Source of the DNA: Mobula hypostoma
Taxonomy: Eukaryota
DNA length: 64,000 nucleotides
Assembly (NCBI RefSeq): GCF_963921235.1
Contig: NC_086097.1
Location: forward strand, 154,010,001-154,074,000
Reading direction: 5' to 3'
The position numbers were made by a program, and so were the translations under genes. The notes under the pieces were generated by a model. That model worked only from the letters and a program-made list of their open reading frames with translations, was not told where the DNA came from and searched no databases. This document shows positions 15,541-63,606 of the stretch, one piece after another; within the stretch, counting starts at the first letter, position 1, and the number at the start of each line of letters is the position of its first letter.

Positions 15541-16490
15541 ATGATCAGATGCTGACCATTCTATTTACCAAGGGAGGACTCCTGTGTGATCCTGGCCACA
15601 GTTCACATACTACCATCGGCCGAATGTTATCAGGCACTTGAGATACTGCATGCTGCCCTCACTAAACAAGAAGCAGTCCACTCAAATCATTTCATTCATA
15701 GTCAGGGACTTCAACTAGGCTAGTTTGGGGAAAAAAAACTCTGTCCAATTACCATCCCCATATAATCAGTAGCACCAGAGGTCCCAACACGTTTGATCAA
15801 TGCTATACTGGGATAAGGAATGCCTGCCATTCCATGCCCAGACTGCACTTCAGGAAATCTGATCACCTGGCTGTCCTTTTCCCACCTGTTTATAGGCAGA
15901 GCCTAGAGACCAAGGCACCAGAGATGAGGACAATGAAGAGGTGGTCTCCAGAGGCAGTAGAATGAATACAGGATTGCTTTGAGTCACTAGACTGGGCCAT
16001 GTTCAAGGGCTCATCTGTGGATTTGAATGAATACACTTCCGTTGTCATGGCCGTTATAAAAACTGTCATAGACGAGTGTGTCCCCACAAAATCATTCAGA
16101 GTCTTCTCCAACCAGAAGCTCTGGGTGAGCCAAGAGATCCACGATCTGCCAAGGGCCAGATCAGTGGTATTCAGATCTGGCGTCCAAGTAAAACACAAGA
16201 GGTCCAGGTACAATTTTTGGAAAGTCATCTCACAGGTGAAGTAGCAATTCTGGACTAAACGTGAATCAATGAAGGATGTTCGACAGCTGTGGCAGGGCTT
16301 GAATGCTATTACCTCTTACCAAGTGAAATCAATCAACAAAGGTGACAACAGGGCTTCACTTCCAGATGAGCTCAATGCCTTCTGTCCCGACTTTGACCGC
16401 AAAAATATGAAGGATCCTTCATGAACTCTCATAGCTCCCAATGAGCCTGTCACTGAGGTCGACATGAGAGCATCCTTCAGAAGGGTGAAC
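15541..16490 (+). mobile_element. Rex1/Babar LINE internal fragment (endonuclease-RT linker)
   Basis: gggacttcaac (GDFN), ggaaatctgatcac (GKSDH), CVPTKSFRVFSNQKLW, LPDELNAF. Confidence 0.88.
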
Positions 16491-17485: not shown

Positions 17486-18020
17486 CTAGCAAAGTGCATG
17501 ACCATGCTTTTCCAACATTGTATTTCTTTTGTCACTCCCTTGCCCATTCTCCAAATGTTTCTAAGTCCTTCTGCAGCCTTCCTGTTTCCTCAACACTTAC
17601 CCATGAGCTGCAGGCAATGGTGGTGGAGGCGGATACGATAGGGTCTTTTAAGAGACTTCTGGATAGGTACATGGAACTTAGAAAAATAGAGGGCTATGGG
17701 TAACCCTAGGTAATTTCTAAGGTAAGTACATGTACGGCACAGCATTGTGGGTCAAAGGGCTTGTATTGTGCTGTAGGTTTTTCTATGTTTCTATGTTACT
17801 CCTCAATCAAACTTCGTATCAGCTGCTAACTTGGCAACAAAGCCATCTATTCCATCTTCTAAATATACAGCATAAAAAGAAGCAGTCCCAACACCGACCA
17901 CTGCGGAACGCCACTAGTGACTGGCAGCCAACCAGAAAAGGTTATTTTTATTCTCATTCGCTGCCTCTTACCAACCAGCCAATGCTTTAACCATGCCAGT
18001 AACTTTCCTGTAATAATATA

Positions 18021-18230
18021 GCAACATACATCAAAGTTGCTGGTGAACGCAGCAGGCCAAGCAGCATCTATAGGAAGAGGCGCAGTCGACGTTTCAGTCC
18101 TGACGAAGGGTCTCGGCCTGAAACGTCGACTGCGCCTCTTCCTATAGATGCTGCTTGGCCTGCTGCGTTCACCAGCAACTTTGTTGTATGTTGCTTGAAT
18201 TTCCAGCATCTGCAGAATTCCTGTTGTTTG
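18021..18230 (+). mobile_element. Penelope-like terminal insertion with inverted 5' arm and 15-bp TSD
   Basis: TSD cctgtaataatatag at 18007-18021 and 18231-18245. Arms 18021-18097 and 18118-18194 match 76/77. Confidence 0.88.
18095..18132 (+). ncRNA. Minimal type I hammerhead ribozyme motif
   Basis: cagtc CTGACGA agg-gtctcgg-cct GAAAC GTC gactg: helix I cagtc/gactg, intact core, helix II AGG/CCU, loop-less palindromic helix III (ACGU). Predicted cleavage after C18127. Confidence 0.8.
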
Positions 18231-18374
18231 CCTGTAATAATATAGGTTGTTAGATATCTGGCGACCAAGTAAAATACAAGAGGTCCAGGTACAATTTTTG
18301 GAAAGTCATCTCACAGGTGAGGTAGCAATTCTGGACTAAACGTGAATCAATGAAGGATGCTATGGTTTGTTAGA

Positions 18375-18627
18375 GATGCAGCACTGGAGGTCGTTCCTGC
18401 CTGTGGCCATCGAACTTGCAGCTCCTCCCGTGGAGGGTCAGACACCCTGAGCCAATAGACTGGTCCTGGACTTATTTTCCATCTGGCATTGTTTGCATTT
18501 TGTTGTTTGATTGTTTGTAGTTTTTGTATTGCTATATTTACGCTCTATTCTTGGTTGGTGCGGCTGTAACAAAACCTAATTTCCCTCAGGATCAATAAAG
18601 CATATCTATTTATCTATCTATCTATCT
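18375..18627 (+). mobile_element. Rex1-type LINE 3' tail with (tatc)n
   Basis: ggtcgttcctgcctgtggccatc (RSFLPVAI)...aataaagcatatctatttatctatctatc. Confidence 0.75.
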
Positions 18628-20789
18628 GTTAACTTGGTAAGCAGCCTCATGTGTGGCACCTTGTCAAAGGCCTTCTGAAAGTCCAAATATACAACATCCA
18701 CAGCATCCCCTCTATCTATCATACTTGTAATATCCTCAAAGAATTCTAACAGGTTCATCAGGCAAGATTTTCCTTAACAGAAACTATATTGACTTTGTCC
18801 TATCTTATCTTATGTCACCAAGTACTCCATAACCTCATCTTTAACAGTCCAACATCTTTCCAACCACTAAAGTCAGCCTAACTGGTCTATAATTTCCTTT
18901 CCCCTGCCTTCCTCCTTTCTTAAGGGAAATAATATTATATCCAGATGGTTATTATGGATTGTCCAATCTATTTATTATTATTTTTGCTCTCTCTTGTATT
19001 TGCACAGTTTGTTGTCTTTTGCACACTGATTATTTGTCTGCCCTGTTGGGTGAGGTCTTTCACTGATTCTTTTATCTTTTGTGGATTTACTGAGTATGCC
19101 TGTAAGAAAAAGAATCTCAATGTTTTATATAGTGACATAAATATATTTCTATAATATATTTACTGTGACCTTTGAACTGTACTAAGAATAGCTGAAGTGG
19201 AAGAACTTGATTTTGAACCTGGAAGTCTAGAGTGTGCCCATTGGACGATGAGGTGTTGTTTAGTTTGAGCTTTGATGGCACTGTCTAGAGCTACGTGACA
19301 GGGAATTGAAGTGACAGGTAGCTGGAAGCTTTTGGTCACCCTTGCAAACAGAATGTTTTGAAGAATACATTAAACCACCTAGCATAGGCATTGTCTCCTT
19401 TTGTAAGAAACCATAGTGTTTTAAAAAAATTGTTCATGGGATGTAGGTATTGCTGGCAAAACAATTAATTATTTTCCTTTGAAGATTTTATCTGAGAGCT
19501 CTGGCACACCTGAGTCTAGTGCTACCTACAGGCTAGTCAAGATAAGATGGGTCAGCTTCTTCCCAAAAATATAAACTTTAGATACCAAGTATAACCAAGT
19601 AAATCAGTGCCTTACTGCAGAAAGTGACAGAGCTAAAGGAGAAATGGTTCAATGAGTGTTTGGACAAATAGAGGTAAGTAAGGTTCTTAGGGCTCTATTC
19701 AATCATTGATCAGAAAGGGTAACCTTGTTCTTTTCTTCACATTCTGTCTGACTTGCTTCTATATGAAGGAATTGAAAATAACCTTATGACTTCATTTGGT
19801 AATTGGATGGGCAGTAGAAATTAAAGGTAGGAAATGAAATTAAAGGTTTAACAATAGCAGGCTATGATAAATGGTGCTCTGAAGGATTTGAACTGGAGTC
19901 TCAACTTTGCAGAATAAATGTGTGACTTGTGTTGATGACGAGAGATGCATTCATTACCATCATATCCAATTATTTAGCAATAGCAACATAACAGGAACAT
20001 TCTAAAGTTGTTGAGTGTTATCAAACAAAAACTTGATATTAATCCACAGCAGAAAATAATATCAGGCATCAAAAGCTTAGCCAAGAGGTAGGTCTATTAG
20101 CAGGTGGAGAATAATTCAGTTCGTGCTTGTCTATTTTGATAGAGGATTGGAAACTTGAAAGTCGATTCAGAAGGGAGAAAAGCTTAGTTGGAAGTGGAAG
20201 ATGGAATTTCGGTTGAAGAGTTAAGTAGGGAGGTAAAAGAAAATGGTGAAGGCCTATGACAGTGATACTGATTATTAAAGATGATCAGGAAAGGACCAAG
20301 TATACAAGCATAGGAGTACACTAAAATTTTGTCAGATAAAATAAAACCTGTAGTTTATTTATCTGAGTACAGACAGCATTCTTCACATATAGGTATAGTG
20401 ATGACATATGGTTCGGTAGCCATTATGCAGATCGTACCACGGACTATCCACCATGCAAAGTGGATAATGCATAGTGTGTAACATCTCTGAAGAATATGGA
20501 AGAAAATAGTCTCTGGGTAATTGATTCATGAAGGTTGAGAACAATCCAAAAGTGAAGAACGATATTGGCTCGAAAGCTCGAGCTGTAGAATCATTTTAAA
20601 CAGCGAAGAAGACTCCCCCCCCCCCACCCCCCATGTTCATGTCATTAGATTTGGGTTGAGGGTAGAATATTTGGTTATGAAAATACTGTCTGAAACAAAA
20701 GCAATTACAATGGTATGAGGATAGGGGAAAAATATATAAAATGAGAGATGGGTAATTTGAGGAGAGGGGAAGTCACGAGAATACATACT

Positions 20790-21599: not shown

Positions 21600-21840
21600 G
21601 ATGAGATGGGGAGAATCAGCTTTTCCCAGAGAGTAGTGAATTTGTGGAACTCTCTGTCCAGGGCTGGCAACCTCATTAAATGTATTAAAAAGACAGTTGA
21701 ACAGATTTTTTGCAAATGAGGGGAAATTAATGATTATGGAGAAAATGCAGGTTGGTGGAACTGAGTCACAGCCAGATTAGCCATCTTATTGATTGGCAGA
21801 GCAGGCTTAATAAACTATATGGCCTACTCCCGATCCTAAA
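21600..21840 (+). mobile_element. CR1 3' fragment abutting the Gypsy 5' LTR
   Basis: cccagagagtagtgaatttgtggaactctctg...ggcctactcc. Confidence 0.75.
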
Positions 21841-22069
21841 TGTGGTAATGTGAGCATTATTAAAGGTAAGTTAATACTAATTAGGATAATGGGGAGTTCT
21901 ACTTCCATTCTTTTTACTTCTGGTGTGCTTTTATATACAGTGTGCCTGCCATGCCGTACGGGTTCTAAAAGCCTCTGTATATACCTATCGGTTTTGATGT
22001 TCGAGATAAAGTTGTTTCTTTAGGCACAAAGTTGTCGAGTGTGTCTTTTTCAAAGTAGAAGTTACTACA
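21841..22069 (+). repeat. Gypsy 5' LTR
   Basis: tgtggtaatg...gttactaca. Aligns without gaps to 26057-26285 with 24 substitutions by manual count. Confidence 0.96.
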
Positions 22070-22159: not shown

Positions 22160-25100
22160 ATGGCTACATTTGGGACTATCGGTGATTTTGTGGAGTTAAT
22201 GGAGGACTGGCCGGAGTATGTTGGGACACTTTTTCTGTGCTAATGGAGTTACTGAGGAGGCTAAGAAGCACTTGATTCTCCTGAGTGTGTGTGGGGCAAA
22301 GACGTACTAGCTAATAAGGAATTTAGCCATACCGCGGAAACCGGGGGACATTCCATATGATGAACTGATCAAGCTCATGGGAAACCACTAGAATTGGAAA
22401 CCTTCTGTGAAAGTCCAACGGTGTAAGTTTCACAGCCGTTTCAGGAAGTCAGGTCAGTCTGTGGCCAATTTTGTGGCCGAGCTTCGGCAGCTGTCGGAGC
22501 ATTGTGATTTTGAATCGGTGTTGGAAAACATGCTCCATGATAGATTGGTATGCGGCATTAATAATGACGGCGTACAACACTGCCTGTTAGGGGAAACCCC
22601 ACTGTTGACTTTCAAGAAAGCCTTAGAGATTGCCCAAGGCATGGAGATGGCTGCTAATAATGTCAAGGATATCCAGAAAGGACATGGGGGGTCGCACCAA
22701 GTCAGGAGGGAGACTGGTAAACAGGCAAAGCGGGTGGAATGTTTCCGGTGTAGAGGGAAGAACTATGCAAATGATTGCAAATTCAAAGACACTGTCTGCC
22801 ATTCTTGTTGCAAAAAGGGACATTTAGCTAAAAAGAGCAGAAGTTGATAGGGTAAGATTAAGCCTGGGCAGGGGAAAGCTCAACAGGCTCAGGCAGCCAC
22901 ACAGCATCTAGAAGATGCAGATGAAGAGGCAGCCTGTGCCTACAACGTGTTTGCAGTGGAAACAGATGAGGAACCACCTGAACCGTATTATGCCACAGTC
23001 ACTGTCAGGGGAAAGGACATTACGTTTGAGATTGATTCAGGGGCTACTGCATCGGTCATTAGTGAGGAGACCTACAGGAGGAAACGGGGGGTCCAACCTG
23101 CCTCCTACCAGACCATCAAATCTCAAACTCAGGACCTGTACGGGGCAGCCCATACCTCACTTAGGGGTGTTATATGTGGACATTTCAGCCGGGGGTCAGA
23201 AGGCTGAAGCCAGGCTAGTGATAGCTAAGGGCAGGAGGCCCAGTCTTTTGGGTTGCGATTGGCTTCACAAAATCCGGCTAAACTGGCATGAAATTAAGTA
23301 TCCACACACGACGGAGGACATTCTGCAGTGGTACAGTGACGTTTTCAGGGACGAGCTGGGAACACTGAAGGGCGTGACAGTGAAACTCCATGTCGACCCT
23401 GAGGCTACACCATGTTTTTTTAAGCCCAGGTCGGTGCCCTATGCCATGAAGGGCAAAGTCAAGGAGGAGCTGGAACGTTTACAGAGGCTGGGCAGTATTG
23501 AGCCCGTCCAGTTTTCAAGGTGGGTGCTCCCATTGTTCCTGTTTTGAAGGCAGACAAAATGGTGAGGATATGTGGGGATTATAAGCTTACAGTGAATCAG
23601 GTCTCTAGGCTGGAGGAGTACCCATTGTCACAGGTGGATGACCTGTTTGTGACCGTCAGGGGGTAAGCTGTTCACAAAGCTGGACATGAGCCACACCTAC
23701 AAACAGCTGCTGCTCAACGAGGATTCAAAGGAGTACGTCACAATTAATATGCACAAAGGATTATTCAAGTAAATCGCCTGGTGTTTGGAGTGGCGTCCAG
23801 CCCTGCCATTTTCCAAAGGACAGTGGACACTTTGCTACAGGAGATTCCACACGGAGCAGTGTACCTTGATGACATTTTGATCACGGGGGCTACGGAGGTG
23901 GAGCATCTGGTTAATTTAGAACGGGTGCTGAAGAGGCTCTCAGACGCAGGGCTGCGGTTGAAACGCAGAAAATGTGTATTCCTGGCATCAAGTGTGACTT
24001 ACCTGGGACACAAGATCACAGCTGAGGGGCTTTGCCCTGTGGAGGACAAAGTGAGAGCTATTAAGGAGGCCCCAAGCCCCAAGACCGTCACGGAACTCAG
24101 ATCATTTTTGGACATGGTGAATTATTACGGCAAGTTTCTTCCTGATGTCTCAAGGGTTTTGACCCCACTGTATAAGCTGCTTCACAATGACACTAAGTGG
24201 CAGTAGGGTGAAGTGCAGGAGAAAGCTTTCAAGGAAGTGAAAGAACTCTTCCACTCAGTGAAGCTGCTTGTTTACTATGACCCAGACAAGGAGATCACCC
24301 TTGCATGCGATGCCTCGCCCTATGAAGGTCAGGGCTGTTCTCTCACATGTAATGGAGGACCGTTCAGAGAAGCCTATTGGTTTTGCTTCACGTACCCTGA
24401 CAGCTGATGAGAAGGGATATTCACAGCTAGACAAAGAAGGTCTGGCCATTGTTTTTGCAGTCAAACGCTTTCATCAGTACCTTTATAGAGGCATATTTAC
24501 AATTTATACAGACCATAAACCACTGATGAGCCTGTTCAGTGAGACTAGATGCATCCCATCGCTAGCCTCAACCAGGATACAGCGTTGGGCTGTTACATTG
24601 TCAGCTACCAGTACGCTATAGTGGGGATATAGCGGGTGGGGATAATGCAAACGCTGATGCACTGAGTCGGCTACCTTTACCTGAGACACCTGTTGCTACA
24701 TATGTGCCTCCAGAGACTGTGTTTTCATTGGAGAGGCTGTCAGAGACACCTGTAAAGGTGACCCAGATCAAGCAGTGGACACAGAGGGACCCAGTCCTGT
24801 CCCAAGTCAAACTTTTCTTTTACAAAGTTGGCCCAGAGTCATGGAAGGAGAGGAACTGGGGCCTTATGCCAAATGCAAGACAGGACTCAGTCTGCAGGAT
24901 GGCTGCATTTTCTGGGGGGGCGAGGGTCATCGTGCCTCCCCTGGCTGTTCACAGATTGTGGAGGAAATTCATGAGACTCATCCAGGGGTGTCGCGAATGA
25001 AAAGCCTTGCTAGATCCTACATTTGGTGGTCAAGAATGGATCAGGATCTGGAGAACAAGGTAAAATCATGCACGCAATGTCAGACTAATCAGAATATGCC

Positions 25101-25821
25101 ACCACCAGCTCCTTTGCACCCATGGGAGTGGCCAGACCACCCCTGCTCTAGGCTACATTTGGACTTTGCTGGCCCTTTTATGGGGCAGATGTTTCTTGTA
25201 ATGGTAGATGTGCATTCTAAATGGATCGAAGCTCACATCATGAGCAACATCCCAGCCCCCTCAACCACAGACAAACTCAGGCAAGTGTTTGCAGTCCACG
25301 GGTTGCCTGACACTCTGGTCACTGATAACAGCCCGACGTTCACCAGTGAGCTGTTCGGTAAGTTCATGCCGCAGAATGGCATTCGTCACATTCGGACGGC
25401 CCCTTTCCACCCAGACTCCAATGGTTTGGCTGAGCGGGCTGTTCAGACAGTGAAGGAAGACCTGAAGTGGATGACAGAGGACTCTCTTAGCATTTGGCTT
25501 CCACGTTTCCTGTTTAAATACTGCCTCCTCCTCATGCCACAGACTACGACTGCCCGCACTCCAGCAGAGATGCTGGTGGGGCGTAGGCCCAAGTCAAGAT
25601 TGGACCTGCTGTGCCTGGACATGAAGGCAAAAGTGAGACAGACTACTGCGGAAGCATGTCCACCAGTGACTTTGCCAGAGGGCGAGACGCTGGCAGAGCG
25701 GTCGGGGTCCCCTGAGGAGGATGGACATTCTCACGCAGACACACAGACCCCTCTCAGCCCCCAATACCAGACCCACCCAAAACACCATCACCAGCGGTGC
25801 CTGCGGGGTCACCATGGGTAG
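22160..25821 (+). pseudogene. Gypsy gag-pol, disrupted by stops and frameshifts
   Basis: Starts MATFGTIG. Contains degenerate zinc knuckles (CFRC.../CHSCCKKGH), protease FEIDSGATAS, RT YLDD, RNase H LACDAS, and integrase HHCC (HETHPG...CTQC) plus DDE core (LHLDFAGP, VTDN, AERAVQ). Confidence 0.95.
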
Positions 25822-26056
25822 TGCGCAGATCACAGCGCACTGGTAAACCTCCTGACAGACTGAATCTTTGACAGGACAGTTTTTTTTGTTGTTGTTAGAT
25901 TGAATGTTGAATCTGTCATGTTTTCCAGATGTTTTGTATTGGTAAACTGTTGCTGAGATACTACTATACGTTTCTAGGGGTATACAAGTTAATAACACTG
26001 TTTTTATTTCCTAGTTTTTTACATTTTGGGAATGTTGGATTTTAAAGGGGGAGAAG

Positions 26057-26285
26057 TGTTGTAATGTGAGCATTATTAAAAGTTAGTTAATACTAATTAG
26101 GATAATAGGGGGTCCTACTTCCGTTCTTTTTACTTCCAGTGTGCTTTTGTATATAGTGTTCCTGCCATGCCGTACTGGTTCTAAAAGCTTCTGTATATAC
26201 CTGTTGGTTTTGACGTTTGAGATAAAGTTGTTTCTTTGGGCATGAAGTTGTTGAGTGTGCCTTTTTCAAAGTAGAAGTTACCACA
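26057..26285 (+). repeat. Gypsy 3' LTR
   Basis: tgttgtaatg...gttaccaca, preceded by the polypurine tract aaagggggagaag (26044-26056). Confidence 0.96.
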
Positions 26286-27285: not shown

Positions 27286-27710
27286 AATCAAGTTGCCTGA
27301 CTCTTTTAAACTCCAACGGATTCAAAACTAGCCATTGCAATTTCTCGAAGTATCCATCCTGAAACACCTCCAAGTTCAGTAAACCTTCACTGAAATGCTT
27401 TTGGTGCAGTTACATTCTTGACTAAGAAGATCAGTAGGACATGTAGGTGAGACAACATCTGGAGTACTCTGTCTGAAGTGTAAACGCCTTGCTCTGTATC
27501 TAATTCCCCTCACTATGCATAATAGCATGTTGGTTAGCTTTCCTAATTACTTGTACACCACCTTACTGGTCACTTGCAAATCATATACTGGGGTATCCAG
27601 ATGCCAGACCACTGCAGTATGCACCCTCTTCAACTTGGACATATGTAGTTTTGGTCTCAACCTTCATTTGGCAGTCATTCTGGCTTCAAATTCAGAAGTT
27701 CCTGGCCTAA

Positions 27711-28520
27711 AGTTATCCACTTTGGTGGCAAAAATAGGAAAACAGATTATTATCTGAATGGTGGCCGATTAGGAAAAGGGGAGGTGCTACGAGACCTGGG
27801 TGTCATTATACACCAGTCATTGAAAGTGGGCATGCAGGTACAGCAGGCGGTGAAAAAGGCAAATGGTATGCTGGCATTTATAGCGAGAGGATTCGAGTAC
27901 AGGAGCAGGGAGGTACTACTGCAGTCGTACAAGGGCTTGGTGAGACCACACCTGGAGTATTGTGTGCAGTTTTGGTCTCCTAATCTGAGGAAAGACATCC
28001 TTGCCATAGAGGGAGTACAAAGAAGGTTCACCAGATTGATTCCTGGGATGGCAGGACTTTCATATGAAGAAAGACTGGATGAACTGGGCTTGTACTCGTT
28101 GGAATTTAGAAGATTGAGGGGGGATCTGATTGAAACGTATAAGATCCTAAAGGGATTGGACAGGCTAGATGCAGGAAGATTGTTCCCGATGTTGGGGAAG
28201 TCCAGAACAAGGGGTCACAGTTTGAGGATAGAGGGGAAGCCTTTTAGGACCGAGATTAGGAAAAACTTCTTCACACAGAGAGTGGTGAATCTGTGGAATT
28301 CTCTGCCACAGCAAACTGTTGAGGCCAGTTCATTGGCTATATTTAAGAGGGAGTTAGATATGGCCCTTGTGGCTACAGGGGTCAGGGGGTATGGAGGGAA
28401 AGCTGGGGCGGGGTTCTGAGTTGGATGATCAGCCATGATCATAATAAATGGCGGTGCAGGCTCGAAGGGCCAAATGGCCTACTCCTGCACCTATTTTCTA
28501 TGTTTTCTATGTTTTCTATG
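27711..28520 (+). mobile_element. Young 5'-truncated CR1 LINE with intact ORF2 C-terminus
   Basis: Uninterrupted 211-aa ORF 27784-28419 (RDLGV, LVRPHLEYCVQFWSP, RRLRGDLIETYKI, FFTQRVVNLWNSLP); (ttttctatg)3 tail. Confidence 0.95.
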
Positions 28521-30440: not shown

Positions 30441-30720
30441 CCTGTCCCATGATCCTCTCATATCCCCTTTGCCAATCACCTGTCCAGCTCTTGGCTCCAT
30501 CCCTCCCCCTCCTGTCTTCTCCTATCATTTTGGATCTCCCCCTCCCCCTCCCACTTTCAAATCTCTTACTAACTCTTCCTTCAGTTAGTCCTGACGAAGG
30601 GTCTCGGCCTGAAATGTCGACTGTACCTCTTCCTAGAGATGCTGCCTGGCCTGCTGCGTTCACCAGCAACTTTGATGTGTGTTGCTTGAATTTCCAGCAT
30701 CTGCAGAATTCCTGTTGTTT
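30441..30720 (+). mobile_element. Penelope-like terminal insertion with hammerhead motif and 13-bp TSD
   Basis: TSD acaccaatttcct at 30428-30440 and 30721-30733. Motif agtc CTGACGA agg...cct GAAAtGTC gact at 30587-30622. Confidence 0.88.
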
Positions 30721-32084: not shown

Positions 32085-32590
32085 TGAACACAAGAGATTT
32101 TGCAGATGCTGGAAATCAAGGGCAACTTACACAAAATGCTGGAGGAACTCAGCAGGTCAGACAGCATTTTATAGAAATGTGATAGGCAGGTGATGAGAAG
32201 AGGTAAGAGGGAAAATAAGGGAATAGAAGAAGAGGGGAGGTGGAGGGGGAAAATTTACCAGAAAGAGAAATTGATTTTTATGCCATCAGGTTGGAGGTTA
32301 CCTAGACAGTGCTGCTCCTTCAACCTGAGAGTGGCCTCATTGTGGCAGAAGAAGAGGCCATAGACTGACATGTCAGAATGGGAATGGAGATAGGAATTAA
32401 AATGATTGGACACCGGGAAACTCTACTTTTTATGGATGGAGTGGAGGTGCTTGACAAAACGGTTCTCCAACTTATATTGGGCCTCAGCAATGTAGAGGCA
32501 GCGGGACAGGATACTGTAGGTGACTTCCAGCAGATTTGCAGATGAAGTTTTGCTTCACCTGGTGGGACTGTTTAGGGCCCTGAATGGAGC
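32085..32590 (-). mobile_element. Penelope-like element 3' portion (decayed GIY-YIG region and terminus)
   Basis: gatgctggaaatc...ggaggaactcagcaggtcag terminus. ggtctcca/tattgggcctc...atgtagagg and caggatactgtag resemble the GIY-YIG-coding part on the minus strand. Confidence 0.65.
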
Positions 32591-32921
32591 TTTTCCCTCA
32601 TTAGGGAGAGAGAGAGAGCTTGTGGTATGTTGAATACTGGGTGAACAAGTTGTCTTTGGGGTACTGCATCTGTGTCTTTATTAATGCTTTGCTGCATGCT
32701 TGAGTACTTAGTGGGGGGCACCAATGCTTTTTTGTTGGTGGGGGAGGGGTGTTGTTGCTTTGCTGTTGCTTGTGTGTGTGGGGGGGCTTTGGGGTTCTAA
32801 CTGTCATTCGTTCTTTGGGACACTCCTCTGTTTTCATGGATGTTTGCGAAGAAAGGGAATTTCTGGATGTATATTGTATACATTTCTCTGACATTTAATG
32901 TACCTGTTGAAACCTATTGAA
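32590..32921 (+). mobile_element. 5'-truncated copy of the ~800-bp Rex-tail family
   Basis: Matches 40600-40945 (ttccctcattagggagagagagagagc...catttctctgacatt). Confidence 0.85.
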
Positions 32922-34019
32922 ATAGACAAAGTCTAAAAATGAAAAGATAAATCAAGTACTATAAAAAGGTGAATTTTATTTTTGTTCCCTCCTGAAATAT
33001 GCTGTCTGAAGAAAGATTAAATTAATTCAAAGGAAGGTTGTGAGGCTGTATGAAAATGTATAGTGGATAAAATATATTTAAAAAAAAGGATGATTAAGGA
33101 TTTCAAGAATAAAGGAATGGAATAAATATTTTATCACAATTGTCACAGCACAGATGAAAATTTACAAAAATAGCAGAGCAGTAGGTTCAATAAGTTAAGA
33201 AATAAATAAGAGCTTGCTTGTGGGAATTCAAAGGGAAGGTGTTGAGTACATAAGAATCATTTCAGGATACTTGGTAAAAAAAATGGGAAAATGCAGGCTG
33301 TAATTACAATATATAAAAGCTTGGAAATTGTATTAGTGATGTTAGAATGACAGTGATAAAATGGAGAAACAATCAGTTGGAATAAGTCAGCAGGTCAAGC
33401 AGCATCTGGGCAGGCAAGGAGATAACTGACATTTTGGGTTGAAACCCTGCATCAGGACTGAGGGCGTAGAGCAGAGATAGCTGGTAAGGAGCAGTGAAGG
33501 AAGGGTGAGACTCTTCTAAAAATATTTGCAGTGAATGACCTATTTCACTTTGACTTTTACTACATGTAAAAATGGCACGGGGAGACTTTACTATCAGCAT
33601 TAGCAAACAACAGAAAAAGAGAAAAGAATGTGATTTCAAAAGGAGAAAAGTAATTAAATTAGGCAAACATCATTCAAACTCAAAACGCAACATGAAGTGT
33701 TTAAAATGATTAAATATAGAATCTATATAATTGAGAAGGAAAGAGGAAAAAGGCTTTTCTGGATGGTTTGCACATACAGTGGGGAAAGATAGTAGACCCA
33801 GTTTCCTAATGTGAAGTCTCAAGTTCCATTCGGTACAAGCCTGTCTTGTGTAGTTAATGGGGGAAATACTACCATAGGATCTAGGTGAAAGCTCTTGTAG
33901 ATGGTTTTTAAATAAAACATGAGTCATAGGAATTTTGACTGGGGAAGGAAAATATTTTAGTGTCTAACACGGCTACTGAAGTGCATAAAGGTGAGGGCAG
34001 AGGTTCTGCAGATTAAAGA

Positions 34020-34147
34020 CACAAGATTCTGCAGACGCTGGAATTCAGAGCAACATACACAAAATGCTGAAGGAACTCTGCAGGTGAGCAGACATCTATA
34101 GAAGGGAATAAAGAGTCGACATTACGGGATGAGATCCTTCATCAGAA
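34020..34147 (-). mobile_element. Penelope-like terminal insertion with mutated hammerhead
   Basis: TSD cagatt(a/c)aaga at 34009-34019 and 34148-34158. Minus strand reads ttctgatgaaggatctcatcccgtaatgtcgac. Confidence 0.78.
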
Positions 34148-37109
34148 CAGATTCAAGAGCAGTGTAGTTCAAGAAGAGGAACTGACAAGGTCTGTGAGAT
34201 CTTGGGCAGGGTAGGAGAATGCAGCCAGGCTTTGGAATAGACTAGTCATTGAATGGAAGAAGAGTATGATCAGAAATTCTCAAAGACTCTCCTGTGGGTT
34301 CCCATTACAAAATGACAGACATATATAAGACTGGATTTGATAAACTGAATTGTATCCACTGATAACATCAGTATGGAGCGGATGATCTGAAAAACTTGCT
34401 TCTGTTCTACATGCCTATATAAATGACTGCCTTACAATGGGAGCTAAACTTTTGCTTTCACATTGACCGTGGTACCTGCCAGACTATGTTCTAGAATTCT
34501 AACCCCTACTTTAAATAAAAAAGCAACACGTTGGGGGGTTGATGCTGATACTGTCATTATGGATTTTGCACATTTTCCCTATTGTGGCATGGAATTTTCC
34601 AAATCCCTCTCCACCATGCAAAGTCATGCTGTTTGTTAGGTTAATTGTCTATTCTAGATCTCCTCCAGTGTAGATTGTTGGTGGGAGAATCAATGGGGTG
34701 ATGGTTGCCTTGTGAGAGAGAATGAGTGACAGGGAAATAAGTAGAGGAATGGCTGACTGAGACTCAGTAGGTTGAAAGGCCTCCTATGTAATACTAAGAC
34801 CTTGCCCTCACTTTAAAATTCATCAATGGCCTTGTTAAAACATAGAAAACAATTAAATATAAATTAAAATAGATTAAGTTCAGTCTATGTTGCAGCCCCT
34901 TTACCATTGATTCTTCTGCAATCATCATCTCTGCCCATTATTTCTGAATTGTAAGTATTGCTAACAAAGCAGCCCAACATCTACTTTGCTTTAAAACAAA
35001 GAGGACATTTCCAGGCATGTCTTTGTATTACTCCATACCTGAGAGGCATTCTAGTGGACCAGTACTGCATCCTCCATAGCCAATATATTCTTCAATTAGC
35101 AGAGCCTAAAACTTTAGCCATTGCTCCATTTGACGATATTAGAAACTAAAAAATTCAGAAATTAAAACATGTTCTTGTCACCTACTGGCTGATGTTTACC
35201 TGCCTGCTGGAAAACAGAAGTCAATATTAGGAGAACAGGAATGTCACAAGTGACCCATAACTTATCTATCCTGCGCATTTTCTGCCCATCTTGGTCTAAG
35301 AACTTGAGGCACATATTTTTAACAAAAAAAATCTAACAATGAAGTCAAAAGGATTTTAATTGTACATAAAATAAAGCAATAGAGTCTGAATTCTGCCTTT
35401 ACTTGAATTAAGGCTTAAAATTATTGACTTACTGCCTTGTATAATCAATGACTGATCCAGAAATTGGCATATGGAACCAGAGTAAATGCCTTTTGTGGTA
35501 TCTATTTATAAAATAGATAATAAGCCTGGTTTTGCTGAAGGTTGCAATTGTGTTAATTGTCCCCATTAGTCTGGGATGCCCAACAGCTGTGGAGATGACT
35601 CTATTTTCAGCTAGTAAAGAAAATGCCAATTTTAACTTTGTCTTGAATCTATATTGCTAAAAGCAAAATTAAGTAGAAAAAGAGAAAATGAAAATTGCTT
35701 TCCTTGAGCAGCTCAGTTTTACAAAAATCAAATAAGGTTACATGCAGACACAATCCACTAATGGTAATTGCACATTTTAACAGTGAATGCCTGAAATGTA
35801 TAATTCAGTTAACATTAAAAAATATACTGTCACTGCAGATTTGCTGAAAATCAGTCGTTTTCCTTGTTTGGTATTCATTCCTTTATTTCAAGTACTGGTT
35901 TGAAATATGATAGCATAGTGCTTAAGTGACTGGTGTAATTGTCAGTAGTGCAGAATTCAAATCTCATCATTGTAAGGGACTTATCAGGGTGAGGATTTAA
36001 ATTGAGGAAATCTGGAATCTAAGAAAAATATTATATCATTAACCATAAGATTATTATAAAAGTAATCCAGTTTAAGACAACATATGAACAGGTAGGGAAT
36101 GGAATGATATCAACCATATGCAAACAGATGTGCAGTGTAAATTGGCATCATGGTCGGTACAGACATCGTGGGTTGTAGGGTCTGTTGTATGTCCCTGCAA
36201 TGGCATTTTTCTATGCTACCAATGCTCTGTCAGTGCATCTATTTTTTGTTGCTACCATTGTTCATTTCAGCTAACCTAATAGGATATGAAGTATTCTTGA
36301 GTTTCAATAGGAAACATGATATTTATTACCATAGTGTATATCTATCACCTTTTCTTTCTCTTTTCAATGGACTGTAAAGTCAGATGGGGAAGGGGAAATT
36401 GAATATTACCTGGCTACCTTGCTTAGACTGCACTGGTTAAAATGGTGGGAGGGTAAGGTGGCATTTCATCAACTGCGATAGAGGTGTGGGAGTTCATACA
36501 GTACATGCTTATTTCGTATGTAGATATAAGAATAATGAATAATGTGTTCTGGTCTAACGCAGGAAATCACTAATTAAAACAACAAGACAAAAACACCCTA
36601 GAAACTCAACAGTTCAGACAGCATCTGCAGAGACAGATTGGGCATTAATGATTCATTTTTATTACCGTAGAAGAATAGACTTCAGCTACTCCTTTGCTAA
36701 CCCTGCTTTGACCACTAGCAACCTTAATCCACTTTTCCCTTACAAAGTCAGCCCACTTCACCTTATCAAGTTTAAAATATTAATGGATCTGAAAAGATGA
36801 ATAAACAGGTAAAATAAGCTGAAGACAAATTATGCTTCAACTGCATAATAGTACTAAATGCTTGTTAGGGAGTGTTCTGGAGTTATGTGAATATAGCGGC
36901 TATTAATTCAAACAAGAACTAGTCTTCAGTTCTTGATGTGGATTGTAATTTGCAAGCAGTAAGTGAAGTTAAAAGCACACCTTTTCAAATAAACAGTCTG
37001 GTCCACAGACTGAGATATGGATTGCAAAATGAAGACCATGAGATGATTGTATTTGTATCAGCCAAATGTTAAAACAATGGGGTTGTGTTAATTATCCTGT
37101 ATCAAACTT

Positions 37110-37848: not shown

Positions 37849-39125
37849 TAGCACATCAAACATGATCACAGATATAGGAAATCAATAGATTTTTGTGTAC
37901 TCAAGGACAGCCTTGCAACATTAACTTTGGGAGTCTGGCTGTCTCTCTCTTCAGAAGCTTTTAAACTATTTGTGTGAATTACTTTGTGACAAAGGTGTTT
38001 CAACATTCCAAAATGACTCCCACTGTAGATATGTAATTCATAGGAAACAGTGCCAACCCAAAATACTGAAGTGAGTGACGTCATTGTAACTATTGAAATC
38101 ATATTGAATCATCTCCTGTTACCTTTGATTTTAAGGGTATAAAAATGTGATGTACTTTCAGGTTTGTGAGCCTCTTCCTAGGATGTCTCCAGAATGAAGC
38201 CTGCTTGTTCTGGTGAATAAAGACTTTTACCTCACCTGGTTCAGTGTTCCTCTGGTGACTGATCACAGTCACAACAGGCTCAAGTAATGAAACATTACAT
38301 CAAACAGTGCATAAAAGCAGGCTGATTTTATCCTGTCAACATAATCCTGAACTTGATTTCATCGCTATTGGATGCTGATAGTATTCAATCAAAAATTTAA
38401 TATTTTATCAGTTTGTTAACCAAAAAGTAGGCATTGCCCTCAATATCAGGCAACATTTACACTCCCTTAGAGGTCACTACGAAGTGCTAGGGAGGAGTCC
38501 ATATTTGAAGCTAGGTTAATGTGTGGCTGATTGTGCAAAGCTACTTATTTGGAATTAAGATTAATCCCACATTTTTTTGAGCAGATGTAATGAGTTTTTA
38601 AGTCAAATGACAAAATAAACAATGTAAAATCTTTAAAGATTAGATAAAATGGTCATTGAAGAAAAAATTTATAATACTCCACCATCTGCCAGATTGCAGG
38701 CATGAATCCTATCCCACAAAGTTATTTTTGTTTTTTTTTCTTGTTTCTATGTGGTTCATTATCAAGTAATATAAAAGTAGCACATAGCTATAACAGCACA
38801 CCCCCCTCCAGAATTCCCATCAAGAAACAGTGCTTGGTGTCCCTCGCTGTTTGGCAAGGATCAGGTTTGTAATTTGTTAGATATTTTCCTCATCACACTC
38901 TTTTTGGCATTGTTGCGTTCAACAGCACTGCGCTGGCACCCACCCACCAAGGCACAGGCTTCATAAAAAGCTGAATTTCCAAGTGGAATACCACCTATTT
39001 AACCCGTCACCGAGGACAAATTACTCCCTCTGATTTCCCCCATGTATCTCTTGCTTTACGTTTTCACTTCTTTATCAAAGGATCACTAACACCTAGTACT
39101 GCTGATTGAACAATTAACTTAATAT

Positions 39126-39260
39126 CAAACAAGAAGAAATCTGAAGATGCTAGAAATCTAAGTAATACACATAAAATGCTGGAGGAACCTAGCAGGCCAG
39201 GCAGCATCTTTGGAAAAGAGTAAAAAGTTGACATTTCGGGCTGAGACCCTTCATCAGGAT
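39126..39260 (-). mobile_element. Penelope-like terminal fragment with hammerhead motif
   Basis: Minus strand reads cCTGATGAagggtctcagcccGAAAtGTCaac. Confidence 0.78.
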
Positions 39261-40146
39261 TAATAACTTGAAGGTGTTGAATGACTGGCAAGAACAGTGT
39301 AATAGTACAGAGTCTTCTCAACTCTGTTCCTCTGGTTGCTATTACAAAGGTTATGACTATTCTTTATTATATCTTACCTTGTAATTACAAGGGATTTTTG
39401 TGCGTCATTCAAGAATCCACACTTGAAGAAATTCAAAGGTTTCCTTGAGATCAGGGCGTTGTTACTGTCCTCAATCAACATTGTAAAACTAACCTCCTGC
39501 AGGTTCAGAGTTTTAAAAAGCCAGTTGTTTTGTTTAGTACTTTGAGATTTTGTCCTTTGACAATGCTATCTGACAGTCTGTCTGAGTAATAGAATACTGG
39601 TCGAAAGTTGTGGGTGGCATCCTACTCCAGAGATCCAATGATCAAATGGACAGTACAAGAGTTGGGATGTTATGACAACCATAAAAGATGCTGCTCAGAT
39701 CACACATGGATATAAAACAGACAATTCAGCCCATGATGATGAACCAAACATATTAAACTAGTAGTTAAATACCTTACTAAACTAATCAATACTGTCTACA
39801 TGATGTTGATGTTACCAGGACTGAAAGGTTAAGTTTTAAGGATAAATTGGATAGAGTGAGACTTTATTCCCTGGAGTGTAGGAGGCTGAGGGGTGTCCTT
39901 ATAGAGGTATATAAAACTATGAGGGGCATAGATGAGATGAATGGTCAGTCTTTTTCTCAGGATAAGGAAGTCAAAAAAACTGGAGGACAGTCTAAAGTTA
40001 GAGGGCATTAATTTAAGGTTTGTGGGGGTGAGAGACAAAGAGGACCTAGGGGCAATATCTTCACACAGGTGAGTACGCTGGGATGTGGAATTATCTGCCA
40101 GAGTAAGTAGTGAAGGCAGCTACAATAAAGGCTGCTAAGTCCCTTA

Positions 40147-40945
40147 GGTGGAGCTTAGGAGACAACGGTACCTAACGGCGACTCCTTTGCTAGCATCTTC
40201 GGAAACAGCTCTAGTTCTATCTTTAATGTCTCTACTTCTCCTGTTTCAGGGTTCCTTTGAAGACCCTGACCTGGAGTTACAAGCTGACTTCGGTTCTTTG
40301 CAGGAATGGGACCCGCTGTCAGGCTCTCACTGTTGGCCGTTCTTCGATATGCCAAGTACGCAGCCTAGAAGATTAGCTCACCTTCGGAGTTTCAGGATTT
40401 TGTGGCTCTGGAGGTGGGCAGAATCGAGATCAGTGCCTCTGCAGGAAATCGGTGTGTTGTGGGAGATGGAAAATCTTTGGCTGTGTGCCCAGAGACCCGA
40501 GTTCTTTGGCCACAGAGCTCTGACACAATAGAATTTTAACATCATAAATCAGTGAGCTATTGTTATGTCTCCCCTCTCACTGTGAAATGGGGACACCCCT
40601 TTCTCCCTTATTAGTGAGAGAGAGAGAGAGCCAGTGGTATGTTCAATACCGGGTGAACAAGTAGTCTTTGGGGCACTGTAAGTCTGTGTCTTTATTGATG
40701 CTTTGCTGCACGCTTCAGTGCTCAGTAGGGGGGGGGGTGCCAATTCTTTGTTTTTGCTGGTGGGAGAAGGATTGTTGCTTTGCTGCTGCTTACACGTTTG
40801 GCAGGCTTTGGGGTTCTAACATTTAACTGTCATTCATTCTTTGGGGCACACCTCTGTTTTCATGGATGGTTGCAAAGAAAAAAAAACTCAGGATGTATAC
40901 TGTATACATTTCTCTGACATTAAATGTACCTTTGAAACCTTTGAA
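40147..40945 (+). mobile_element. ~800-bp non-autonomous retroposon with Rex-type tail, inserted in a CR1 remnant
   Basis: ggtggagcttagga...cctaacggcgactcctttgc head and acctttgaaacctttgaa tail. No recognisable coding content. Confidence 0.85.
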
Positions 40946-42813: not shown

Positions 42814-43374
42814 TTAAATTTAAGTGCATGCCCTAGAGTATGAGATATTTCCACTCTGTAGAAAAAGATACTGCCTCTCTAACTATGCTACTCCTAATTT
42901 TATAAACTTTTAACAGGTCTCTGGTCAACTTTCTCCACTTCAGACCCAGGCAGCAGCTTGGTAAAACTCTTCAGATCCTCTCCCAAACTTTCACATCCTT
43001 CCTATAATGAGCAACTAGAACAGAAGGTAATGTTCCAGATGTGCCCTAACCTAACCAGTTTTAAAAACCTATTAAAATAGTCGTTTTCCTTCCCTGAAGA
43101 ACATTAGTGAACCACATATGGTTAGGTGTATATTAAGATATGGAAGTTTCTTTGTCATCTTCACTAGTAATTCTATTCAATTATTTGAATCCCCAGCTGT
43201 TCTGGGGGAATTGGTCCACAGGTCAATAGCTTATGACACTGGAATTTAGTCCAGCAAATCTTTTTCTGGTATTTGCATTTTGTGATGCATTGATTAGCCT
43301 ACATCTACCACAAAATTGAGTTCCAAGTCTGCGTATCTCAAGTCCTGACATTCGCTTATCATGTCTCACAGTCT

Positions 43375-52048: not shown

Positions 52049-52130
52049 CCTGAAGAAGTGTCTCAGCCTGAAACGTCGACTGTTTACTCTTCTCCGTTGA
52101 TGCTGCCTGGCCTGCTGAATTTCCAGCAAA
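52049..52130 (+). mobile_element. 82-bp Penelope-like hammerhead-bearing insertion with 10-bp TSD
   Basis: TSD gtaatcatgt at 52039-52048 and 52131-52140. Insert begins cCTGAAGAagtgtctcagcctGAAACGTCgac. Confidence 0.85.
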
Positions 52131-57505: not shown

Positions 57506-60437
57506 TCCTCCGGCACCGCACCAATGGCTAAGGATATTTTAAGCAATCTCTGCACACTAGCCTCTCACAGGATCCAAGGGGACACCTTGTCAGACCCTGG
57601 GGATTTATCCACCCTAACTTGCCTCTCAACCTGAGGATCAAATCTATCCATAATTGCCTTGAAACAAACGTCAAAATGATATCTAGGTTCAAAGTGTTCT
57701 CCTACAAAAACCTCTGTCAACTTTCCTGCTTCATTCCCTAATAGGAAATCTAGTATCACACACTCTATTGTTGCAACTTCAATGTATGACTAAGGAAACT
57801 GTTCTGAACACATTTGACAAACTCTGTCCCATCTAATCCTTTTACAGTATTGGAGTCTCAGTCAGTACGTGGAAAGTTAAAATCTCTTACTATAACAGGC
57901 TTAAATTTCTTGCAACTGTCTGCAATATCTCTACAAATTTGCTCTGCTATATCCCACGGACTGTTGGGTGGTCTACAATATAATCCCATTAATGTGGTCA
58001 AGGCTTTTTTATTCCTCAATTCTACTCTTAAAGCCTCACTAGATGAGCTGTCCAGTCTGTCCTGGCTGAGCATTGCTGTGACATTTTCCTTAACTTGTAA
58101 CGCCACCCCTCCCCCTTTGATTCCCCTTGCTCCATCACATCTAAAACAATGGAATCCCAGAACACTGAGCTGCTAGTCCTTCCCCTCCAACAGCCAAGTC
58201 TCACTAATGGCCACAATGTCATAATTCCATGTGCTGATCCATTCCCTAAGCTCATTTGCCTTTCCTACAATACTCTTTGCACTGAAATATACACAGCTCT
58301 GAATATTAGTCGCACCATACTGATCCTACTCATTCTTTTGATTCTAAACTTTCTATGTAGGCTTAGCAACATCTTTCTCCTCAACCACTCTACTATCTGT
58401 TCTGGCATTCTAGTGTTCTAGTTCCCATCCCCTGCAATCTAGTTTAACCCCCACCCATGCAGCATTAGCAAACCTTCCTGCTAGGGTATTAGCTCCCCTC
58501 CAGTTTAGGTGCAAACCCTTCTCTAGAGGTCCCACCTTCCTTGGAAGAGAGTCCAAAAATTCAAAAATCTAAAGACTTCTCTTATGCATCATCTCCTTAG
58601 CCAACTGTTAAACTGAAACTGTATGATCTTCCTATTTCTGGCTTCATTGGCACATGGCACGATCACAATTCTGGAAGCCCTGTCCCTTGACTTGGCACGC
58701 AATTCCCTAAACTCACTTTGCAGGACCTTGTCACTTCAATGCAAGAACTTGGATCAATTTGCAACTGGTTGCATTGATGATCAGTAACAGGCATTCATAG
58801 ACAATGCTCAAAATACTAAGATGGAAACCACAGTTCCCAACACCCTGCTCCAGTACTGTTCCTCAGTTACAATCCTAACAATTCACATCTCATTGCACCA
58901 GTGTGACATTTATACTTTCCACATCAGAATTGTCATGGCCTCTGCAAACCAGATTGTCAATTTAATAGCCCAGTATCACAGAGTCATACAGTAAAGGAAG
59001 AGACCCCTTGGTAAATCAAGTCCATGCTAACTCATCTATGCTTTTCTCATTTACTAGTACATATTCCTTAGCTTCTGTTACCTTGGTGATTCACATGGTC
59101 AGCTAGATACTTTTATTTTGTGTTTCTACCAGCTTCTACCATCTACCATCTACTCAGACTGTGGGTAATAATAGCTTCTGGCTGTGGGCTTGCAGATACT
59201 GGAAGCTGAGTTTAAGCTGTTCAAAATTAATTTCACTATGAGCCACAATAACCCAGGAAAAAGAAAGGCAAGTAATTTGCTGAGCGCAGTATTCAATCTA
59301 TTCTGTTCTCATTATTGACACGATGCATGTGCACACCACTGGGGAAAAAACAGAAACATCAAATCACAATGAAGGACTGGTGAAAATTCCGGGTTCCTTA
59401 TTCTTAGTGGGTTTGCAGCTTTGAACCAAGCCTCACGGTTCAACTAATAATTCAGCTATCAACAACTGAAACATATGTCTAATTTACTAAAAAAAAACAG
59501 GCCAGGTGCCTCCTTTTGAAAATGTGTTATTGATTGAAGAAACTGTTCATGTAATCAATGCTGGCTAGATTTGATGACACAACAACCTCAGCTGTGTGAA
59601 GTAATTTATTGTACCTGATGTTTTTGGAGATTTGACTGTTGCGTTGAGCATCATGAATTTCTGTATTTTAGGAAAACCTCTGAAGTTCATTCACTCTATG
59701 GGCAGTAAATTATTTGGTAGATATTGAGTTTAAATTGCCAGGTACCCCAACAAAGCCAGGCTCAGTTTGTGCATATGCTATGCCACACTTACTACTGCAG
59801 AAAGTCAGAAGGTGCTTTCTTGGTCTGTCTCCTGACAGAATTTCAGCTGATTTCACATGCCAGATATTTCAAGACAGTTGTTGTGACCTTTTTTTTTATT
59901 AGAAGTAATGAGTTTTGTCATGCAGATTACATTACATCTTGGTGAATAACAGTTAATAAAACTGTCAGTGCAACATTTATTGCTGCATGATATTGTGCAT
60001 CTGTCTCAGTTTTTTTTAAAAACAGATGCTCCTACTTTATTAGAACCTACATAATATTTACATACATATGCATATAAATGGCTGCCATTTAAACCTCTAT
60101 TTCAAATTTAAAGATGTATATTGACTTTACCAATTTGATTAGTAATTTTGTTCTGGAAACCTTCTGACAAAAGTCAGAAGGCTGCATTCCAGCACAAAAA
60201 TCTAGGTGACTTCAGGACACAGGGAAGTTCAGTAGCCGTTTTCTCTTTCCCTCTCCAAATAACTCCTTTAACACAAATTTCTTATTATAATTGATCCAGC
60301 GATATTCAATGAAAGCCTCATGTGCCTTTGTTTCCTCCAGAATATATCATTCGAATATGCATTTGTGGCTAGAGTTTCAAGTTCAATAACAGGCCATAAT
60401 GTGTAAAAGCAACACTTCTAGACAAGAATATGAAGAG

Positions 60438-60620
60438 AAAATGCTGGAAACACTCAGTAAGTCAGGCTGCATCTGTCAAAAGGAATAGAATTCATGTTTC
60501 AGGTGAAGTTTGATGAAGGGTCTCAGACCTGTTTCTCTGTCAACAGATGCTGCCTGACCTATTGAGTGTTTCCAGCATTTTTATTTCTTATTATTTGAGA
60601 TTTTCAGCATCTGCAGTAAT
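60438..60620 (+). mobile_element. Old Penelope-like insertion with inverted 5' arm
   Basis: Arms 60438-60476 and 60543-60581 match 36/39 and flank a truncated tgatgaagggtctcag. Confidence 0.75.
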
Positions 60621-60635
60621 TTTTTAGTTTTCATT

Positions 60636-62121: not shown

Positions 62122-62189
62122 GATATTGCGTTCACCAGCAACTTTGATGTGTGTTGCTTGAATTTCCAGCATCTGCAGAATTCCTGTTG
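62122..62189 (+). mobile_element. Very short Penelope-like 3' terminus with 12-bp TSD
   Basis: TSD tattacatttaa at 62110-62121 and 62190-62201. After five extra 5' bases (gatat), the insert is identical to the end of the 30441-30720 copy. Confidence 0.85.
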
Positions 62190-63606
62190 TATTACATTTA
62201 AAACTTTTTTCTAAAAGTCATTATCTAATTCTTACCATGGTCTCTCACAACGGTCTACTAAATGTAAAGTAATGGGGAATCTTTCTTTACACTATACCCA
62301 ACCTGGCACAGGATGTTGATGAAGATTCCCATTGTAAATTGTGGGGAATCGCTGAAGCCTCTTATTTCCATGGTCTGTATTAACAACACTGCTGGCAAAA
62401 TAATAGTAAACCATTCACAGCAACTTCTGGATTTCTATGCTTCTGTGTATATGTGTGAAAATCTACCAAATGTTGACAGATTTTTCACTAGTTTTGCTGA
62501 CAGTTCCCTGCAAAACCATGGGCCACGCTTCTTATTGTCACTATTCATTAATTGCTCATTCTAAGGTGTTCTACCAGTTGAGAATGCAAATTGTGTACAT
62601 ATTTACTTTTTTGGAGTATGATTGAGTTGCAATTTGTTCATGATTGGTAGAACACTTCATTTTCAATAGGACATTGTATGAAGCAACCAGACCTTTAATC
62701 TATTGCTGAATTTCTGAAACATGCCAGCACTGAAATCTCTGACAGCATTACATATACCTTGAAGGAAGTACTGATAGATTCTATGGAGAAATTATTGAAT
62801 TAACTCTACACAATTATAAAACCTGAAAAGTGTAAATATGCTTCTTGCTGACTAAGCCCCATAGTACTTAGGATACACGACAAATGAATTAGATTTTATA
62901 TGCTGTGGGAATAAACGGATAATTGTTTAAGCCTGCGTTAAATTGTTCAGCATGTCATATTCTTCTATTGAATTAACATATGGAATACCTGTAAGAAATT
63001 CTAAAATGGATTTGAGTTATGATTCAACACAATGAGAATTAATTGTCAGGTTTGAACTGCTACCTTTTAAGAGATAAAGTGAAAGCATGGTATTAAACTT
63101 TTGAGGGAGGACAAAGCTATCTGGGCTTTGAAAGAGAAAACAGTCTCAAAATTGCCTGAATTTGAATGCAGATGTCGGATGATGAAAGTATGAATTTCAA
63201 AACTCACTGTTGTTGGTTGGCTTCCAAACACCACCAATTAGTGATGCATGAGATGAAGATCCCCTTGAATGGTATGCTGTAGGTATGAGAACACCTGTGT
63301 ACACAACTGTAGTTATTTGCTTTCAAGGCAAAAATAACTAATGAGGCTGTAATAAGAAGGAGTAAAGCAGAGCACACACTACGTAAAACACAAAGGCTTA
63401 TCTCTGGCCAGCATCCATCTGGAAGCTCTGTTCTGCAGGATCCATTGCTTGCAAGCCTTGTGCACCCAGGCCCACACTATCTTCAAGGCTCCATTCTCCA
63501 GGGACATGTTTCATTTGACATCTCCAACCCTCTGACCCCAAGTATCTTGCCAGCCAATGCTCTAAACCAGCCCCAGCCTAGTCCCATTCCCAGCTTCGTA
63601 CTTCTA

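Follow-up and report, generated by a model that had tools for sequence, protein, structure and literature searches.

Minimal hammerhead ribozymes (min-HHRs) were described in the pseudo-LTRs (pLTRs) of metazoan Penelope-like elements (PLEs) by Cervera and De la Pena in 2014 (PMC4209133). The min-HHR consensus comprises a nucleotide that sits between residues 9 and 10.1, a G10.1-C11.1 pair and palindromic 15.2-16.2 nucleotides; monomers were found to be inactive and dimers weak (PMC4209133). The hammerhead of Poseidon from Anolis carolinensis cleaves with the element protein and is rescued by the C3G/G8C exchange, and an uncut template was reported for this element in vitro (Frangieh et al. 2024, PMC11167929). 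Inserted endonuclease-bearing (EN+) PLEs have been described as carrying an inverted 5′-truncated copy, a tail of 30–40 bp at one end and target-site duplications (PMC8557442, PMC3846280), and self-priming has been inferred for their inverted junctions (PMC3846280). Retrozymes have been reported in one chondrichthyan genome (2026 preprint, bioRxiv 10.64898/2026.07.22.740005). The role of the ribozyme in the Penelope cycle is described as unclear (PMC8557442, PMC11167929). A literature search outside subscription journals returned no relevant paper on the motif in elasmobranchs, whether sharks or rays. The supplement text of PMC4209133 that was searched has no entry for a shark, a skate or Callorhinchus, and the remaining supplement may list examples.

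The window, that is the whole stretch of 64 kb analysed here, contains at 18022–18230 a 209-bp insert whose anatomy is that of a truncated Penelope insertion carrying a min-HHR (Table 1). Very probably, this insert is a fold-back of the hammerhead-bearing 3′ end of an abundant Penelope-like element (likely Neptune-type and from a ray), predicted to be masked by its own arm and likely inactive. The original reading of a TSD-flanked insertion is borne out by an exact 15-bp target-site duplication (TSD) that bounds the insert, but it overlooked an 81-nt inverted repeat around the motif (18020–18100 versus 18115–18195, 98% complementary). Mismatches between the two arms are confined to 18031 and 18098, and two nucleotides of microhomology at the outer end, together with an imperfect microhomology at the inner junction, extend the pairing to 18020–18100. 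The forward arm outruns the inverted arm by 35 nt, and contig ends from sequencing runs fall at 18020 and at 18230/18231. The insert shares with EN+ PLE insertion units (PMC8557442, PMC3846280, PMC8969392) the head-to-head inverted, 5′-truncated copy, the one-sided tail within the 30–40 bp range, the TSD and the junction microhomology. It differs from these units in that no ORF was found in 18022–18230 and in that the junction lies at the 5′ edge of the hammerhead; the TSD measures 15 bp here and 8–10 bp in the rotifer examples.

Table 1. Coordinates in the window of the focal insert, its parts and the other copies of the family.
Feature	Position	Strand	Evidence or character
Minimal type-I hammerhead motif	18095..18132	+	sequence, descriptor and shuffles, pair counts
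Left target-site duplication, 15 bp, AT-rich	18007..18021	+	exact repeat at 18231–18245
Right target-site duplication	18231..18245	+	exact match to 18007–18021
Inverted, 5′-truncated, tail-less element-end copy (fold-back arm)	18022..18096	-	complementarity
Forward Penelope-like 3′ end (pseudo-LTR), 5′-truncated 4 nt before C3	18096..18230	+	alignment
35-nt tail, forward arm only	18196..18230	+	arm alignment, contig ends
Young sister copy	30441..30720	+	150 nt native upstream, 13-bp TSD, without inverted arm
Older sister copy	32085..32591	-	decayed GIY-YIG C-terminus, then family 3′ end
Second, old fold-back copy	60424..60630	+	self-inversion, arm alignment
Short older copy	52049..52130	+	10-bp TSD, begins 3 nt before C3
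Older copy, hammerhead core present, helix I decayed	39124..39262	-	
Older copy, A13 mutated	34026..34150	-	
Old divergent copy, A9 and G12 mutated	33388..33460	-	
Young and very short copy limited to the 3′ end, with 12-bp TSD	62127..62190	+	

The family 3′ end is present in 11 copies within the 64 kb, five of which have an exact TSD of 10–15 bp. The forward arm is 94.8% identical over 134 bp to 30587–30720, within the young sister copy, and the local alignment of the focal copy to this sister begins at -4 from C3. The sister hammerhead (30586–30623) has C15.2 changed to U. At six of the seven positions where the forward arm differs from the sister, the inverted arm shares the forward letter; five shared letters remain once the sister's own change at 18124 is discounted, and 18184 is private to the forward arm, the inverted arm carrying there the sister letter. 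The shared letters indicate that both arms come from one template, with about one substitution gained since. The perfect TSD and this single arm substitution bear out the youth originally claimed for the insertion. No empty site was seen among the 15 joints listed of 251, and contigs carry two upstream types, with C before 18095 and with T before 18096, respectively.

All the core letters that had been predicted (CUGACGA / GAAAC / GUC) are present. CUGACGA occupies 18100–18106 (C3 to A9) and GAAA 18120–18123 (G12 to A15.1, with G12 to A14 at 18120–18122). The palindrome ACGU, claimed as a loopless helix III, was found at 18123–18126 with no loop III, and C17 is at 18127, which supports the cut after C18127 as a prediction from the motif. 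The segment 18095–18132 thus contains the min-HHR core CUGANGA ... GAAA ... UH, a palindromic 15.1–16.1 without loop III, and a helix I of 4–5 bp that closes the ends. For this helix the original cagtc:gactg pairing is correct in that the 5-mers 18095–18099 and 18128–18132 are complementary, but only the four pairs 18096–18099:18128–18131 are native. The outermost base, C18095, derives from the inverted arm, and the sister has T at the corresponding position (30586). The fifth pair, U-G in the sister, is C18095:G18132 here and in this copy is therefore made by the junction.

A minimal type-I descriptor matched twice in the window (at 18100 and 30591), both times in the same Penelope-like family, against two matches in 300 dinucleotide-preserving shuffles searched on both strands (0.007 per window). 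The motif itself is therefore well founded. A search with Rfam covariance models, proposed as a check along with the original prediction, did not recover it: the whole window gave no match at gathering score, and the nine matches obtained in 17900–18350 at E≤10 did not include hammerhead families. Rfam models presumably expect loops that minimal hammerheads do not have, which would explain this null result. Matches to miRNA precursors (E 1e-7 to 1e-8) were rejected, being far under gathering scores and reflecting the hairpin only. The stability of the isolated 38-mer is ordinary compared with shuffles (z -1.63).

Base pairing was counted in the six window copies that align gap-free, out of seven that retain some trace of the core; the one at 60511, which has a deletion, was excluded. 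These counts led us to reject helix II as first drawn (agg:cct), since its closing pair A18107:U18119 forms in three of the six copies versus six of six for G18108:Y18119 (three G-C and three G-U, with G-U in the focal copy). The A18107:U18119 register is thus probably wrong. In the better register, 18108–18111 pair with 18116–18119 and A18107 is unpaired, so that both the additional nucleotide separating 9 from 10.1 and a pair at the G10.1-C11.1 position are found. Folding favours this bulged-A register by 1.2–1.4 kcal/mol. In four runs, C accounts for 20%, 30%, 19% and 75% of the contig depth at position 18119; T>C at this position breaks the A-U pair but keeps the pair with G, as fits the G18108:Y18119 register. 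In helix I, 70% of the cells are paired across the six decayed copies. ACGU is kept in two of the six (the focal copy and 52045), the other four showing a CpG-type change. Pairs changed on both sides number zero in the six decayed copies, a sample too small to decide on covariation; the result does not exceed the shuffled control, and the contigs give no linkage between positions.

The motif agrees with the min-HHRs of PLEs (PMC4209133) in its core boxes, its helix I of 4–5 bp, the palindromic 15.2–16.2, the lack of loop III, the unpaired nucleotide between 9 and 10.1 and the G10.1:C/U11.1 pair, and also in occurring, as most of them do, as dispersed single copies from truncated elements. In contrast to the Schistosoma families, where helix II has 7–8 bp, helix II has 4 bp here (PMC4209133). 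The young subfamily further differs from the published PLE motifs in that G10.1 pairs with U, and the focal copy in being, by prediction, masked by its arm. The cut site sits within a 6-bp palindrome, 18125–18130, that overlaps ACGU (region 18122–18132); this palindrome may offer an alternative, inactive dimer interface.

The Penelope-like origin originally proposed is supported by the older sister copy, which joins the family 3′ end to a GIY-YIG frame whose relatives contain both RT and GIY-YIG domains. Its decayed endonuclease C-terminus (32264–32591) has one stop, one frameshift and a short deletion. A C-terminal GIY-YIG upstream of the pLTR, as in EN+ PLEs, is thus seen by homology in 32085–32591, not in the focal insert. 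This copy is without the hammerhead segment, and no single window copy has both the frame and the hammerhead; the link between them is an 84-bp 3′ end, 80% identical to the focal one. The 87-aa decayed frame in 32085–32591 gave 145 HMMER matches at E≤0.001 (best 6e-16). Among the 14 of these relatives that were scanned, two (P0114 and P0120) have RVT_1 and GIY-YIG above the Pfam cut-off and four further ones have a sub-cut-off GIY-YIG match. P0114 and P0120 are full-length, with RT, Cys linker and GIY-YIG. A direct Pfam scan of the decayed frame found no GIY-YIG match, two word-index protein searches with it found no match, and no RT fragment of the family was found in the 64-kb window, RT being seen only in P0114 and P0120. 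The claim of a chondrichthyan family is supported by the relatives that were looked up: eight of the ten come from Hypanus, Hemitrygon, Rhincodon or Rhinoraja (stingrays, skate, whale shark).

The motif CX2-5CxxC, which marks the linker of Neptune/Nematis elements (PMC8557442), is found in the top relative and in 70 of the 145; the window copy ends before the linker. Judging from these protein motifs, the source element is likely of the Neptune type, although the GIY-YIG domain alone also fits Nematis and Naiad. As in Neptune-clade PLEs, its C-terminal GIY-YIG is encoded on the strand of the ribozyme and upstream of it; unlike in these elements, linker and RT are absent from the window.

The source is likely a very abundant Penelope-like retroelement of a ray. 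Contigs matching 17850–18420 number 79,462 (a DNA run), 54,000, 7,477 and 21,412 in four public runs, with depth concentrated on the insert; contig depth is not equal to copy number. In organism A, about 29%, 32% and 20% of depth carries the focal letters at 18134, 18155 and 18188, compared with 4%, 12% and 5% in organism B, frequencies that suggest a recent sub-lineage. Pattern scans for further copies gave no match in viral contigs, nor in metagenome contigs with the ribozyme pattern. A 19-nt family pattern gave 114 matches in metagenome and 75 in prokaryote contigs; these were rejected as chance, none of the 189 loci aligning to the family beyond one 28-nt low-complexity stretch. Among ray proteins, predicted isoforms of host genes (P0160, P0161, P0002, P0011 and P0056) terminate in stretches translated from this Penelope family, and P0160 and P0161 include apparently exonised pieces of the ribozyme region. 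The genes concerned are RecQ5, STARD3NL, mucin-2 and the neuromedin-U receptor, with the ribozyme region in either orientation. Such protein ends could be due either to exonisation or to gene-model artefacts.

The structure of the insert suggests how it was formed. The GIY-YIG endonuclease of the element would have nicked the AT-rich site, as the TSD and the results obtained with Poseidon (PMC11167929) suggest, and reverse transcription would then have copied the tail and the pLTR through the predicted cut site. The insert spans 18127, so the template was likely uncut RNA. Synthesis would have stopped 4 nt upstream of C3, whereupon the 3′ end of the cDNA may have folded onto its own complement of 18118–18119 and been extended into the inverted arm. 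This arm ends before the 35-nt tail and joins the target via the 2-nt microhomology. When folded, the native cDNA end at 18096 gives a weak structure (-2.9 kcal/mol) in which the two terminal bases lie on the complement of 18118–18119, and the predicted register is the one whose extension yields the observed arm. The cDNA hairpin is weak, and a template switch may have taken the place of self-priming. Poseidon (PMC11167929) likewise has a pLTR hammerhead, an AT-rich target, two 3′ end points that define the tail and inserts that span the cut site. It belongs to another clade, and its ribozyme has been assayed (protein-assisted), whereas the focal one is predicted from sequence.

This course of events raises the idea, tentative and in our view rather doubtful, that the hammerhead doubles as a reverse-transcription stop and a self-priming signal: cDNA made on uncut RNA would halt upon reaching the ribozyme's 5′ edge, and the arm would be primed by the folding back of the helix I/helix II complement. 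If so, the head-to-head insertions of Penelope elements would be explained by the structure of the ribozyme itself, and each fold-back would be a self-silenced ribozyme and an 80-bp source of double-stranded RNA across ray genomes. The data show only weakly that 5′ ends cluster at the edge of the ribozyme. By eye, 5 of the 11 window copies end there (simulated P 0.0008, a value on which we do not rely). By automatic alignment, 4 of 11 lie within -4 to +1 of C3, only two of these four being TSD-bounded, and two other copies have their 5′ ends at -13 and -56.

The designation of the focal copy as an intact ribozyme does not agree with its predicted folding. Folding of the whole insert yields -171.8 kcal/mol (z -23.7) and places GAAAC-GUC together with helix I inside the stem. 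As the arm lies 5′, it is transcribed first, ahead of the motif; it pairs with GAAAC-GUC and with the 3′ strand of helix I, so that read-through RNA is predicted to form a long hairpin. Opening the hammerhead form would cost 19.8–31.4 kcal/mol with the arm versus 4.2–4.5 without it, and 2.6–9.7 for the sister in its native context. The minus strand has no CUGANGA box. Under equilibrium folding, the focal copy is thus likely inactive, its motif locked by its own arm. It is very unlikely that RNA from this locus nevertheless cleaves after C18127, in trans with sister RNA. Such activity would be in line with core letters and ACGU that are all intact, ACGU being kept only here and in 52045 among the six copies, and with the presence of family sequence in a run presumed to be RNA (the one with 7,477 contigs). 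An RNA starting at 18093–18096 would pay only 4–6 kcal/mol, a start at 18093 or later escaping the masking, but 10 nt or more of arm would raise the cost to at least about 20 kcal/mol. The dimer helix ACGU/ACGU contributes -1.7 kcal/mol, free co-folding of two 38-mers gives a different structure and not the hammerhead dimer, and published min-HHRs are weak as dimers (PMC4209133) or protein-dependent (PMC11167929). By analogy with these, the motif of the source element would probably be a weak type-I hammerhead assisted by a dimer or by protein. An improbable reading, to which we nevertheless give some weight, is that the motif is merely hammerhead-like and conserved for a non-catalytic role (protein binding, RT stop, self-priming). 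Covariation was not seen in the six copies, the insert reads through the cut site, ribozyme mutants of Anolis Poseidon still insert in vitro and no RNA-seq reads from Anolis are reported to stop at the cut site (PMC11167929). Against this, the core positions, the 9.1 insertion and the palindrome all agree with the published consensus, an agreement not given by chance, and the Anolis motif does cleave with protein, with rescue by C3G/G8C (PMC11167929). Catalytic and non-catalytic roles are compatible with each other.

We find it hardly credible that the palindrome replicates as a non-autonomous element in its own right, MITE-like or retrozyme-like, with a fixed junction. Fold-backs do recur. 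The old copy at 60424 is self-inverted at 70% over 60424–60595; its apex (60511) has a decayed hammerhead, and its forward arm alone bears a tail. In addition, 11 of the 15 joints listed (of 251) link an inverted arm to 18095–18111. Joints at 18095–18097 are biased by the reference, which has no native sequence further upstream. These 11 rows however show 10 different arm ends, with loops of 38–76 nt versus about 22 in the focal insert, as expected for repeated independent events and not for one replicating palindrome. A DNA-transposon or MITE reading was rejected because of the one-sided tail and the variable junctions, and a one-sided tail with a long TSD fits Penelope, not a cut-and-paste element. 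The sole protein match to the fold-back frame spans the forward arm only. Non-LTR retrozymes, which originate from pseudo-LTRs and have been found in one chondrichthyan genome (bioRxiv 10.64898/2026.07.22.740005), resemble the insert as non-coding units with a type-I hammerhead and Penelope ancestry (also PMC7229834). They form tandem direct repeats, each with a hammerhead, that give circular RNA, whereas the focal locus is a single fold-back in which no tandem array was found.

Taken as a truncated Penelope fold-back, the single locus matters little, since min-HHRs in PLE pseudo-LTRs and inverted 5′ copies with a tail have already been published. Its use is as a young and cleanly bounded record of one integration (nick, copying of an uncut ribozyme, stop, fold-back, tail loss). 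The family is abundant enough for the role of the ribozyme in the Penelope cycle to be tested statistically.

Several other repeats were observed in the window. The insert is hosted by an older LINE-type RT fragment on the minus strand, with halves at 17820–18015 (to 18021) and 18629–18900; by its motifs we take it to be LINE/CR1, and Pfam gave no match for a 52-aa piece of it. The two halves are about 610 bp apart, separated by the Penelope insert and about 380 bp of other repeats, indicating nested insertions. A 104-bp direct repeat (97%) is present at 16175–16278 and 18256–18359, 2,081 bp apart, with no further copy in the window. Its second copy begins 10 bp past the right TSD, and sequencing-run contigs show that it is itself repetitive. 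Further downstream, 22392–25821 holds the decayed remains of an LTR retrotransposon, with matches to RVT_1, integrase zinc finger and rve; a direct repeat of 89% identity on either side (21838–22069 / 26054–26285) may represent its LTRs. An open frame of 256 codons at 27649–28419, for which Pfam gave no match, resembles the C-terminus of a LINE ORF2 in its motifs. Finally, an 800-bp inverted pair (40146–40945 / 42005–42814, 70%, about 1 kb apart) is related to 32591–32938 and belongs to another old repeat family.
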